Shown piece by piece: positions 19,912-46,004 of a stretch of 64,000 nucleotides of DNA. The stretch's first letter is position 1; each line of letters opens with the position of its first letter. The stretch comes from Escherichia coli (GTDB taxonomy: Bacteria > Pseudomonadota > Gammaproteobacteria > Enterobacterales > Enterobacteriaceae), in NCBI RefSeq assembly GCF_030013205.1, contig NZ_CP122648.1. One strand, given 5' to 3'. The notes beneath the pieces are model-generated. The model saw only the letters and a program-made list of their open reading frames with translations, searched no databases and was not told the DNA's origin. The position numbers and the translations under genes are program-made.

Positions 19912-20676
19912 TTACTTACCAGAGGCGATACGATCACGGATGTGTTGCGCACGCTCTGTTGATGGTGGGTGAGAGTCAAACATGGACTGGGTACGACCGC
20001 CATCCAGGCTGGCCAATTTTTCAAAGCTGCCAACCAGCCCCTGGGTGCTGATGCCACGTTTCTTCAACAGTTCAAAGGAGAAATCATCTGCTTCGGACTC
20101 TTTATCGCGGGAGTATTTAGCATTGATCGCGCCTTCTGCGATATCACCTAATTGTGAGCGAGAAAGCTGGGAAGCCACACCGCTGGTAGCGGAAATCGCA
20201 TCACGTGCGGCAACGATCGCATAAGAAGCTTTCATTTCAGCCAGCGAGTGACCCAACGCGACGTGGCCCAGTTCATGACCCAGAACGCCTTCAATTTCGT
20301 TGTCGTTCATCATGTCCATCAGGCCACTGTAGACACGAACACAGCCGTTCGCCATCGCCCATGCGTTGACGTCGCTGGTCATATAAACCTTATAGTTGAC
20401 CGGCGTGCCATTAATATTGTTACCCAATGCTTTGGCGATTTTTGCCAGACGTTTACCGTACTTGCTGGATTTACTTGCGACTTGATTGCCGCTGTCCATT
20501 TCGGCACAGCCCTGATTGGCAATCGCTTTTGCATCAGCATCGCTTAACGTTGCTGCTTTATAGGCATTTAAACCTGAGCTGATAGCCATATTGGTATCAA
20601 TACCGTGGGTATTTTGACACCCTGTCAGTAATGCTGCAGAAGCCGCAATCGCCAGCAGTAATTTAGTATTCTTCAT
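19912..20676 (-). CDS. ycaL: Lipoprotein metalloprotease YcaL (M48 family)
   Basis: Lipobox LLTGC and HELGH zinc motif; start taken at MKNTKLL. Confidence 0.9.
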   Translation of the reverse strand: MKNTKLLLAIAASAALLTGCQNTHGIDTNMAISSGLNAYKAATLSDADAKAIANQGCAEMDSGNQVASKSSKYGKRLAKIAKALGNNINGTPVNYKVYMTSDVNAWAMANGCVRVYSGLMDMMNDNEIEGVLGHELGHVALGHSLAEMKASYAIVAARDAISATSGVASQLSRSQLGDIAEGAINAKYSRDKESEADDFSFELLKKRGISTQGLVGSFEKLASLDGGRTQSMFDSHPPSTERAQHIRDRIASGK

Positions 20677-20789
20677 GTGAATCATCCGTTGATTAATCAT
20701 ATATAAATATTATGTATCAACAACTTACATTGACAAGCGACGCTACCATTAATCAAAATGACTCACAAGGTCCGAATAAATATCCTCCG

Positions 20790-21520
20790 GCATAGCCGGA
20801 GGTTTTTCAAATGCGCCTATAAGGCTCTCTTACCAGCCGCGCCCTAACAGGCGCACACGATCTGACATTTGCATCCAACTTCGTTACTTACGGCCCGTAA
20901 ACGGGCTGCCCGGATAGGGAATCGATAACTGCTCTCCCATTTTATCCTCTTCAAGCTGGTGCTTTATGTAATCCTGTATCTTCGCCGTGTTCTTACCCAC
21001 CGTATCGACGTAGTACCCTCTGCACCAGAACTCTCTGTTCCTGTATTTGAATTTCAAATCACCAAACTGCTCGTAAAGCATCAGACTGCTTTTCCCTTTC
21101 AGATATCCCATAAAGCCGGATACGCTCATTTTGGGCGGGATCTCCACAAGCATATGGATATGATCTGCACAGCATTCAGCTTCAAGAATCCGTACGCTTT
21201 TCCACTCACACAGCTTTCTCAAAATACTGCCTATTGCTCTACGCTTCTCTCTGTAGAACACTTGTCTTCGGTATTTTGGCGCAAAAACTATGTGATATTT
21301 ACAGTTCCATCGGGTGTGCGCTAAGCTCTTTTCGTTCCCCATTGGGACCCCCTTTTGATTTCTTGTTTGACACTTGCAGTTGCCAGACCGCAAGGTGTTT
21401 TAACAAATCAAAAGGGGTTTTAATAACTGGCTCAAAGCTGAAAGCTTTCCGGAACCCCCAGCCTAGCTGGGGGTTTTCTGTGCACAAAAAAAACGCCGAC
21501 AATGTGCCGACGTTTTGATA
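20790..21520 (-). mobile_element. IS200-type insertion sequence (IS200/IS605 family); boundaries approximate
   Basis: The ycaL-aroA spacer is ~880 bp and contains a Y1 transposase ORF with flanking hairpins (e.g. CCCCCAGCCTAGCTGGGGG at ~21463-21485); ends not mapped precisely. Confidence 0.6.
20884..21342 (-). CDS. tnpA: IS200 transposase TnpA (HuH/Y1 single-strand transposase), 152 aa
   Basis: MGNEKSLAHTRWNCKYHIVFAPKYRR...ADHIHML (HuH motif)...; near-identical to recalled IS200 TnpA. Confidence 0.9.
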   Translation of the reverse strand: MGNEKSLAHTRWNCKYHIVFAPKYRRQVFYREKRRAIGSILRKLCEWKSVRILEAECCADHIHMLVEIPPKMSVSGFMGYLKGKSSLMLYEQFGDLKFKYRNREFWCRGYYVDTVGKNTAKIQDYIKHQLEEDKMGEQLSIPYPGSPFTGRK

Positions 21521-21555
21521 AAGAAAGATTTGGCTATTTATTGCCCGTTGTTCAT

Positions 21556-22839
21556 TCAGGCTGCCTGGCTAATCCGCGCCAGCTGCTCGAAATAATCCGG
21601 AAATGTTTTGGCCGTACATTTGGGATCAAGAATCGTCACTGGTGTATCTGACAACGCCACCAGCGAGAAACACATCGCCATCCGGTGATCATTGTATGTC
21701 GCGATCTCGGCAAAGTTCAGTTTTTCCGGTGGAGTGATACGAATGTAATCGTGCCCCTCTTCTACTTCCGCACCAACTTTACGCAGTTCTGTTGCCATCG
21801 CAAACAGGCGATCGGTCTCTTTAACACGCCAGTTATAGATATTGCGCAGCGTGGTGGTGCCTTTTGCAAATAACGCCGCCGTGGCAATGGTCATCGCCGC
21901 ATCGGGAATATGGTTCATATCCATATCAATAGCGTTCAGTTCACCACGCGTGCAGGAAATATAATCGTCGCCCCAGCAAATAGTCGCGCCCATTTTTTCC
22001 AGCACATCAGCAAAGCGAATATCACCCTGCATACTGTTGCGTCCAATGCCGGTCACTTTTACAGTGCCGCCTCTGATTGCTGCTGCTGCCAGGAAGTAAG
22101 AAGCCGAAGATGCATCGCCTTCGACCAAATAAGTACCCGGAGACTGATAAGACTGCCCGCCTTTTACGACAAATTGTTGATAGTGCTGATTTTCAATTTC
22201 AACACCAAACGTCTTCATCAGATTGAGTGTGATGTCGATATAAGGTTTAGAAACCAGATCGCCTTTAATACGAATAACCGTATCTTCCGGCGCAAGAGGC
22301 GCAGTCATTAATAGTGCGGTGAGGAACTGGCTGGAAACGGAGCCATCAACGTCAACGTTGCCGCCAGTAAAGCTGCCCTGTAAACGCAATGGCGGATAAT
22401 TTTCTTGTTCCAGGTAAGTGATCTTCGCCCCGCCCAGGCGCAGCGCATCCACCAGATGACCAATCGGGCGCTCTTTCATACGCGGCTCACCAGTCAGCAC
22501 AATATCATTGCTACCCAGACAAAGAGCTGCCGCCAGCGGGCGCATTGCCGTTCCGGCGTTTCCGAGGAACAACTCCAGGGCACCTTCTGCGTGTAATGGA
22601 CCGCCGTTACCGATAATTTCGCAACGCGTACGATCAGCTGAAAGCGTATAGCTTACCCCTAACGCTGCTAATGCATTCAGCATATGGCGCACGTCATCGC
22701 TATCCAGCAGATTGGTTAATACTGTTTTGCCGTGTGCTAATGCCGCCAGCAATAAAGCGCGGTTAGAAACGCTCTTGGAACCGGGCAGATTAATAGTGCC
22801 ATCGACACGAGCGATGGGTTGTAACGTCAGGGATTCCAT
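21556..22839 (-). CDS. aroA: 3-phosphoshikimate 1-carboxyvinyltransferase (EPSP synthase), 427 aa
   Basis: [23 protein letters not shown]... canonical AroA. Confidence 0.98.
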
Positions 22840-39223: not shown

Positions 39224-39393
39224 AATGGCTCACTCAAGCTTGCTCACGATTGATTCCAGTAACAAACCGTATTGTGTAATTATTTCTATAGCAGGTCGCT
39301 ATATAGGCTTGTATACATCGAATAATTTGAAAATCAAAGAGATAGGTAGATTTTCACTCGAAAGTAGTATTACGTGTAAGTGAGGAGTAATTA

Positions 39394-39407
39394 TTGTTCG
39401 GTATCAA
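39394..39407 (-). promoter_or_regulatory. Putative FNR-like half-site pair upstream of dmsA
   Basis: TTGTT-CGGT-ATCAA resembles the FNR consensus; distance to the dmsA start (~180 bp) makes assignment uncertain. Confidence 0.25.
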
Positions 39408-39419
39408 AGGGAGACAAAA

Positions 39420-39439
39420 AAAGCGCCCGCAGGCGCTTT
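39420..39439. repeat. attL: 20-bp direct repeat AAAGCGCCCGCAGGCGCTTT (prophage boundary)
   Basis: Identical copy at 60471-60490; palindromic stem; here followed on the minus strand by a T-run, i.e. the intact host terminator context. Confidence 0.8.
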
Positions 39440-39522
39440 AACGTTTCTTGCTCCCCCTGATGATTTACTTATTTTTCAACGAATAAGCCAAAACAGGGGG
39501 AACAAATTAACACAAATTATAA

Positions 39523-45637: not shown

Positions 45638-46004
45638 TTAAACCCGGCCAGTGAAAATCACTGGCCGGAGCAGTATCAGGATTTTTTAGTATGCCGTTCT
45701 CACAAAAAAACCGCTTGCCATGCCGCAATCAGTCAGGTTACATTTCCGCTGCACCTCATAAAACGGGTGCCGGGATTTCCACCCCGCTGACAACCAAAGC
45801 GCACAACCGCGCCAGCGGTTTTTTTGTGCGTACCGTATCGCCACGTCTTTTTCGCACACGAATTATGGTGGGGCGTATGGGGCCGACTTCGGTCGGGCCG
45901 GGTTCTTTGGTTGCCGGTTGTGGAAACCCTGTACGTCTCACCACCCCGAGTTTTCCACCTCTGGATGGTGAGTTTTCAAAACTTACAACCAAAGAGGCCA
46001 CACC

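Follow-up and report, generated by a model that had tools for sequence, protein, structure and literature searches.

A probable intact IS200C element in the T-tract of the aroA terminator of Escherichia coli, and the possible recognition of terminator hairpins by IS200-type transposases

Introduction

In the 64-kb stretch of Escherichia coli DNA analysed here (the window; positions count from its first letter), the genes rpsA, cmk, ycaL, aroA, and serC all lie on the minus strand, and the spacer between aroA (21556..22839, minus strand) and ycaL (19912..20676, minus strand) exceeds by 711 bp the 168-bp spacer of K-12 MG1655 and E. coli C. What occupies this enlarged spacer, does it disturb the gene on either side, and why does it lie so close to the 3′ end of aroA? 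A preliminary description made from the sequence had proposed an IS200-type insertion carrying a Y1/HUH transposase gene, accompanied by flanking hairpins and with possible effects on the aroA terminator and on the neighbouring genes.

We conclude, with a probability of roughly 0.88, that the feature is one intact IS200C element (IS200/IS605 family, tnpA-only group) whose insertion point is the T-tract of the intrinsic aroA terminator. The IS200C copy at aroA is already annotated at the same site in public genomes and is a known, ordinary element; the enlarged ycaL-aroA spacer is not a new gene. For the window itself the element is of little consequence, being known, annotated, and most likely leaving aroA and ycaL untouched. 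What the data give beyond this is a nucleotide-level picture of where IS200-type elements land: directly behind terminator hairpins, and repeatedly at one terminator.

Identity and boundaries of the element

Alignment of the filled site with the empty sites of K-12 and E. coli C places a complete element of 711 bp at 20775..21485 on the minus strand. In K-12 MG1655, aroA occupies 958812-960095 and ycaL starts at 960264, and the IS200 site between them is empty. When the flanks of the window were aligned separately (the left flank ending in ...GTCGGCGTTTTTTTT and the right flank starting with CGGACCTTGTGAG...), they rejoined exactly on the K-12 and E. coli C spacer, with neither target duplication nor deletion. 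Comparison with the K-12 spacer had been named in the preliminary description as a check, and it agrees with the proposed insertion, as does the family assignment of the transposase given below. The range proposed there, 20790-21520, was close to the element but drops the last 15 bp of its right end and takes in 35 bp of host DNA belonging to the aroA terminator. Because the tip of the right end finishes in TT and the target is itself a run of T, the boundary is uncertain by 0-2 nt. The same 711-bp unit was found at 7 other E. coli sites, and its termini, GTGCACAG... and ...ATATTTATT, are not inverted repeats of each other.

The name IS200C rests on the PGAP/RefSeq naming of the identical protein, used as a proxy for the ISfinder reference. 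Twelve porcine E. coli genomes contain, at 100% identity, a 1101-bp stretch with the element, which carries the RefSeq label IS200C there; for strain K_EC180 and others with 100%-identical DNA, RefSeq gives the product as WP_000526135.1, "IS200/IS605-like element IS200C family transposase". The content of the element is that of the ~700 bp class, with tnpA as the single family-size ORF; only 109 bp lie between the tnpA stop codon and the right-end tip, and tnpB and an omega-RNA are absent from the element. Every testable defining feature of the IS200 group is present in the window element, and both its ends and its tnpA reading frame are intact.

The transposase

The tnpA gene (20884..21342, minus strand) encodes a 152-aa Y1 HUH transposase, as judged from its ORF, its Pfam and NCBIfam matches, and its homology to solved structures. 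The protein scores 130.7 bits against Pfam PF01797 (Y1_Tnp; cut-off 23, E=3.8e-38) and 147.7 bits against the NCBIfam equivalog NF033573 transpos_IS200 (cut-off 55), so that the presence of the transposase gene proposed for the enlarged spacer is confirmed. It aligns over its length with the solved IS200/IS605 transposases 2ec2, 2f4f, and 2a6m, the last being the IS608 TnpA (E=3.9e-19). The HUH motif is H61-I-H63, and it is accompanied by Tyr125 and by Gln129, four residues beyond the tyrosine; Tyr125 is the predicted catalytic tyrosine. An ORF on the opposite strand (20959-21324, plus strand) was set aside as a mechanical ORF.

The Y1_Tnp fold is common to another class of proteins, and a domesticated REP-associated tyrosine transposase (RayT/TnpA-REP) at its native locus was considered. 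This reading can draw on the common fold and on a weak match to the REP_Tyr_transpos model, but that match reaches only 32.2 bits, below the cut-off of 80, against 147.7 bits for transpos_IS200. The site is moreover empty in K-12, E. coli C, and ~99% of genomes, the element is multicopy and mobile-looking (19-33 places per genome in the lineages with this insertion), and no REP arrays flank it. With the REP score below its cut-off and the K-12 site empty, a native RayT-type locus, the finding that the preliminary description had named as contrary to its proposal, was rejected as having practically no chance of being correct.

Structures at the element ends and in the 5′UTR

The left end opens with the linker GTGCACAGAAAA (21474..21485, minus strand), in which the GAAAA beside the hairpin is a candidate guide. 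This GAAAA is conserved in all left-end variants and directly precedes both subterminal hairpins on their 5′ side; the first 7 nt of the left-end linker vary and differ between lineages. The linker leads into a perfect hairpin, AACCCCCAGC-TAG-GCTGGGGGTT (21453..21475, minus strand), which was identified by DNA folding, corresponds to positions 1-23 of Rfam STnc490, and is presumably the hairpin bound by TnpA. The whole STnc490 match (RF01405), which takes in the left-end hairpin and the tnpA 5′UTR (21352..21475, minus strand), covers the full length of the model (1-124) with 146.4 bits against a gathering score of 56 (E=3.5e-31). The left-end hairpin occurs once in the 64-kb window, where 0.01 occurrences would be expected by chance, and there is no further IS200C copy in the window; given this count and the STnc490 E-value, a chance match is ruled out.

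Within the 707 bp of IS200, a bidirectional terminator has been placed at nt 12-34 and a stem masking the Shine-Dalgarno sequence at nt 69-138, and an antisense sRNA, art200/STnc490, has been described (PMC4513863, PMC5435999). The terminator is the left-end hairpin (PMC4513863, PMC5435999), and it is reported to stop ~85% of impinging transcripts (PMC5435999). In the window element, a stem-loop in the tnpA 5′UTR (21349..21417, minus strand; RNA fold -40.4 kcal/mol, z = -3.7) pairs the Shine-Dalgarno sequence AAAAGGGG with CCCCUUUUGAUUUG / CCCCUUUU in the predicted RNA fold; translational repression by this stem was shown for Salmonella IS200 (PMC4513863). A further feature from the same description (PMC4513863) was mapped by homology onto 21334..21423 on the plus strand of this copy.

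The right end (20775..20883, minus strand) consists of an imperfect palindrome (~20812-20855), GAAAAA, a hairpin CCTCCGGC-TAT-GCCGGAGG (20784-20802), and, last, the tail ATATTTATT (20775-20783). Copies of E. coli IS200C and Yersinia pestis IS1541 do not differ in this hairpin and tail, and on both strands the hairpin, taken together with the T-rich tail, has a terminator-like score. Together, these structures would leave IS200C transcriptionally insulated and translationally repressed. The element thus has hairpins of its own (21453-21475 and 20784-20802), but these are subterminal; of the flanking hairpins reported earlier, one (21490-21516) belongs to the host and is its aroA terminator.

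Three weaker Rfam matches were discarded. An RmaA match at 21456-21532 (27.9 bits, gathering score 57) merely combines the aroA terminator and the left-end hairpin, and MIR827 (21.9 against 65) and a reverse-strand echo of STnc490 (20.6 against 56) fall below their gathering scores and were treated as noise. Elsewhere, large virulence-type plasmids of O157:H7 and O103 strains contain unannotated 141-bp fragments that match the IS200 right end only (query 176-316, 92% identity) and look like orphan right-end remnants.

Effect on aroA and ycaL

The aroA intrinsic terminator, the target of the insertion, is intact at 21486..21516 (minus strand), with its hairpin at 21490-21516 and its T8 tract at 21486-21493. 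It lies directly 5′ of the IS200C left end and is identical to the terminator at the empty K-12 site; as DNA, the hairpin of this haplotype has two G-T mismatches and is not perfectly paired. On the other side, promoter-like hexamers of ycaL, recognised by consensus match (TTGTCA-16-CATAAT, 20709..20736, minus strand), are unchanged from K-12. They lie 39 bp downstream of the IS200C right end, so that 38 bp next to the -35 hexamer on its upstream side are also unchanged and the sequence beyond has been replaced by the right end.

Disruption of the aroA terminator or of the ycaL promoter region by IS200C is unlikely on this evidence. Since the terminator and hexamers are intact and the element ends are themselves terminator-like, aroA termination and ycaL expression are expected to change little or not at all, and the copy is probably near-neutral for its host. 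The suggestion in the preliminary description that the insertion could affect the aroA terminator or its neighbours finds no support in the sequence, where the terminator hairpin, all eight T's, and the ycaL hexamers are retained.

Recurrence at the aroA site

IS200 was found at the aroA site in 52 of 5426 complete E. coli genomes (~1%), in the same orientation in all 52, and the insertion is usable as a lineage marker. The filled genomes are not one clone. Seven representatives were aligned, and element variants and flank haplotypes proved to be decoupled: two variants of the element ~4% apart occupy the same aroA site, with the near-identical variant A found in flanks differing by 3-5% and variant B found beside a ycaL flank with 1/1171 differences from that of the window. 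The element of strain 2009C-3133, for example, differs from that of the window at 1/711 positions, and its flanks differ at 41/1205 and 34/1171 (~3%); in strain ST2747, the element differs at 29/711 positions and the ycaL flank at 1/1171. The numbers of T to the left and right of the element also differ between lineages (T8|0, T7|+2, and T8|+1). Because the variants and haplotypes are decoupled and the T counts differ, the simplest reading of these sequences is that several independent insertions have occurred into the same aroA T-tract, with the caveat that gene conversion between IS copies, together with recombination in the flanks, could mimic some of these apparent independent events.

A single ancestral insertion at aroA, spread by vertical descent and homologous recombination with no hot spot involved, would account for the identical site and orientation in all 52 genomes, and E. 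coli recombines often. Such an origin is nevertheless hard to reconcile with two variants ~4% apart at one site, with the finding of variant A in divergent flanks and of variant B beside a nearly identical ycaL flank, with the differing junction T counts, and with just 1% of genomes being filled, and we regard it as quite unlikely.

One aroA-site copy has an odd right-end tip, ATATTTTTTTT. The copy at aroA in strain Z1323CEC0015 ends in ...GGAGGATATTTTTTTT-CGGACC rather than ...ATATTTATT-CGGACC and has T7 instead of T8 on its left; its tip is altered, and either slippage or an aberrant junction may have caused this.

Lineages with the aroA insertion have 19-33 places per genome that match the element, against a median of 2. 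The porcine ETEC/O139:H1 lineage to which the window belongs has 19-23, and some pig and human strains have ~30, which indicates that IS200C copy number has expanded in porcine ETEC/O139:H1 and in some pig and human lineages. In strain 28Eco12, the ymgL-iraM region holds two IS200C copies in the same orientation, ~1.2 kb apart.

The window is 100% identical to the porcine ETEC strain ETEC4079 across the stretch compared; it is likewise 100% identical to K_EC180 once a 21-kb segment at 39440-60470 is set aside. This segment (~21.0 kb), missing in K_EC180, has dmsA on one side and the 3′ end of serS on the other, and a 20-bp repeat marks its junctions. It is 100% identical in ETEC4079, where its annotation includes a phage integrase, a tail sheath, and a tape measure; at this locus, relatives have a 36-kb P2-like prophage with a replication endonuclease and terminase. 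Rfam matches within it include a C4 antisense RNA (45861-45948) and isrK (45751-45825), with STnc130 (39314-39448) at its border. The segment looks like a deleted P2-family prophage.

Target pattern at other sites

In all 8 of the E. coli sites read (aroA included), the left end lies a few bases after a terminator-like hairpin and T-tract. At the other sites, the hairpin and T-run are found downstream of cgtA/obgE, osmE, zntB, uhpT, sseA, and a gene near iroB, and in the ymgL-ymgK spacer, with the left end abutting the hairpin and T-run. At most of these sites tnpA is co-oriented with the upstream gene, as it is with aroA and with ycaL downstream in the window. The adjacency to the aroA 3′ end thus looks like a target preference of the element and not an accident.

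These other sites also bear on the idea that the insertion is adaptive, with changed expression of ycaL or aroA explaining its recurrence. Recurrence in several lineages and the replacement of all sequence beyond the first 38 bp upstream of the ycaL -35 hexamer speak for such an advantage. The terminator, T-tract, and promoter-like hexamers are untouched, however, and target specificity alone predicts the same recurrence, the terminators of cgtA, osmE, uhpT, sseA, and others being likewise hit; we consider an adaptive origin very improbable.

A wider sample was assembled by searching a single genome of each species for exact matches to the left-end hairpin, which gave 120 loci from Y. pestis (IS1541), Vibrio, Brenneria, Edwardsiella, Pluralibacter, and metagenome-assembled genomes (MAGs; Mailhella/Desulfovibrio, Bacillota, Peptococcaceae, Oxalobacter, and others). 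In these other taxa, 103 of the 118 unique left-end flanks (87%) were terminator-like, in a sample that comes mostly from Y. pestis, Vibrio ruber, and a few MAGs and with flanks that are not phylogenetically independent in element lineage. The corresponding figure for control positions 300-1200 nt away was 7/432 (1.6%; Fisher p about 1e-85). Among unoccupied runs of T>=5 at the same loci it was ~15%, a pooled value, the split into coding and non-coding runs having used a crude six-frame ORF mask that makes it unreliable as a split. T was found at positions -1 and -2 in 112 of 113 flanks. With left-end junctions set by a fixed offset from the hairpin, as in the count of terminator-like flanks, a G:C-closed stem ended 6-9 nt before the junction in 98 of 113; the corresponding distance at the element's own right end is 9 nt.

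The main rival to terminator targeting holds that IS200 inserts at any T-rich site and that only neutral, transcription-shielded insertions persist. Intergenic positions 3′ of genes are plausibly neutral, and a 2026 preprint reads the upstream terminator-like context as limiting transposase expression (10.1101/2025.07.22.666184), both of which suit this explanation. Yet a left-end terminator is already part of IS200 (PMC4513863), insertions have recurred at one nucleotide-level site, the spacing from stem to junction is narrow, and hairpins are found at far fewer of the unoccupied T-runs than of the occupied sites. The contrast of 87% with 15% and the narrow spacing favour real targeting, and persistence alone seems improbable as the cause, if less so than the other alternatives considered here; selection against insertions elsewhere could still contribute to the association with terminators.

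Several observations on the left-end hairpin and on tandem copies stand beside these results. The 22-nt hairpin CCCCCAGCTAGGCTGGGGGTTC is exact in very distant taxa (MAG contigs L013-L084, which include Saccharibacteria and Elusimicrobiaceae), and the 12-nt linker before it in L013-L084 is lineage-specific, for example GGTTAAAAGAAAA or GTGAAACGAAAA. Many of the L013-L084 matches are at contig ends, as expected of multicopy repeats. This suggests a strong constraint on the left-end hairpin and wide horizontal spread, with MAG binning errors as a possible contributor. In Y. pestis NCTC5923, two loci (L088 and L090) hold tandem IS1541 dimers in which one copy's left end directly follows the ATATTTATT tail of the copy before it, which fits the right end, with its hairpin and T-rich tail, itself resembling a target.

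A preference for terminators is partly known already. Odaert et al., in 1998, reportedly saw stem-loops resembling terminators at 8 of 14 IS1541 sites and suggested that these are hot spots. A search of the literature for an explicit statement of terminator targeting by IS200 or IS1541 gave only the 2026 preprint, which provides statistics on terminator-like sequences upstream of IS200/IS605 elements and interprets them in terms of transposase expression, as noted above (10.1101/2025.07.22.666184). In the literature searched, an explicit structural target rule and the idea of right-end mimicry were not found.

A possible mechanism of target recognition

In IS608 and ISDra2, TnpA cuts out the top strand in the form of a single-stranded circle, which it then inserts 3′ of a short single-stranded target; this target is read by base pairing with a guide beside the left-end hairpin and can be re-programmed; both elements prefer the lagging-strand template (PMC5027513, PMC5934647, PMC6006769). 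By extension of this "peel and paste" scheme, the TnpA of IS200C would excise its top strand as a single-stranded circle, which would be pasted 3′ of a short target on single-stranded DNA, mainly on the lagging-strand template. GC skew is negative on the plus strand of the window across the 64 kb, and the top strand of IS200C, which is the minus strand, is therefore the lagging-strand template. In K-12, aroA is on the plus strand at 0.96 Mb, and the assignment to a replichore rests on the established positions of oriC and dif.

The target of IS200-type elements would, in this scheme, consist of a GC-rich hairpin and, 6-9 nt beyond it, a cleavage point inside a T-tract, in other words an intrinsic terminator presented as single-stranded DNA. 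Such a geometry would resemble the one at the right end of the element itself, where the 9-nt tail ATATTTATT follows a hairpin, and TnpA may recognise the terminator hairpin as a mimic of that end. The GAAAA that precedes both subterminal hairpins may act as a guide by pairing with T-rich cleavage sites, by analogy with the guide of IS608. A target preference of this kind would explain the repeated hits on the aroA terminator in E. coli.

Taken as a whole, the proposal that IS200-group transposases recognise intrinsic terminators as structured single-stranded DNA (a hairpin, cleavage in the T-tract 6-9 nt downstream, right-end geometry, and a GAAAA guide), creating recurrent, orientation-specific hot spots across phyla, is one on which we are evenly divided. 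If structural recognition of the target is true, it would explain how a multicopy element stays harmless and silent, and it would suggest a natural "safe-harbour" single-stranded DNA transposase whose target might be re-programmable, as with IS608.

Comparison with known systems

The closest relatives of the window element are IS200 of Salmonella enterica and IS200C of E. coli. Like these, it is 707-711 bp long with a single gene for a 152-aa Y1 transposase, and it has the left-end terminator hairpin (~nt 11-33), the SD-sequestering 5′UTR stem, the art200/STnc490 region, and the right-end hairpin, with neither inverted repeats nor target duplication (PMC4513863). Nothing substantive differs; the window element is one chromosomal copy, and the porcine ETEC/O139 lineage that carries it has unusually many copies.

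IS1541 of Y. pestis and Yersinia pseudotuberculosis shares an identical left-end hairpin and the right-end hairpin and tail, and its left end abuts a hairpin and T-tract in most of the ~45 Y. pestis loci examined. The two differ in the left-end linker, which is GTGCCCAGAAAA in IS1541 and GTGCACAGAAAA in IS200C; copies of IS1541 also differ in sequence, and tandem dimers occur in Y. pestis.

RayT/TnpA-REP proteins have in common with the IS200C transposase a Y1 HUH fold acting on hairpin DNA. RayT genes are, however, single-copy, domesticated, and flanked by REP sequences, whereas IS200C is multicopy, is absent from the corresponding K-12 site, and misses the score of the REP equivalog.

IS608 of Helicobacter pylori and ISDra2 have homologous TnpA proteins with HUH and Tyr motifs and subterminal hairpins; they too insert 3′ of a short target at the left end, without duplication, and have their active strand on the lagging-strand template (PMC5027513). 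No description of a structural component in the target choice of IS608 was found in the literature searched. In contrast to the IS200 type, which lacks tnpB and is found at a T-tract with an upstream hairpin, IS608 carries tnpB and has the bare tetranucleotide TTAC as its target.
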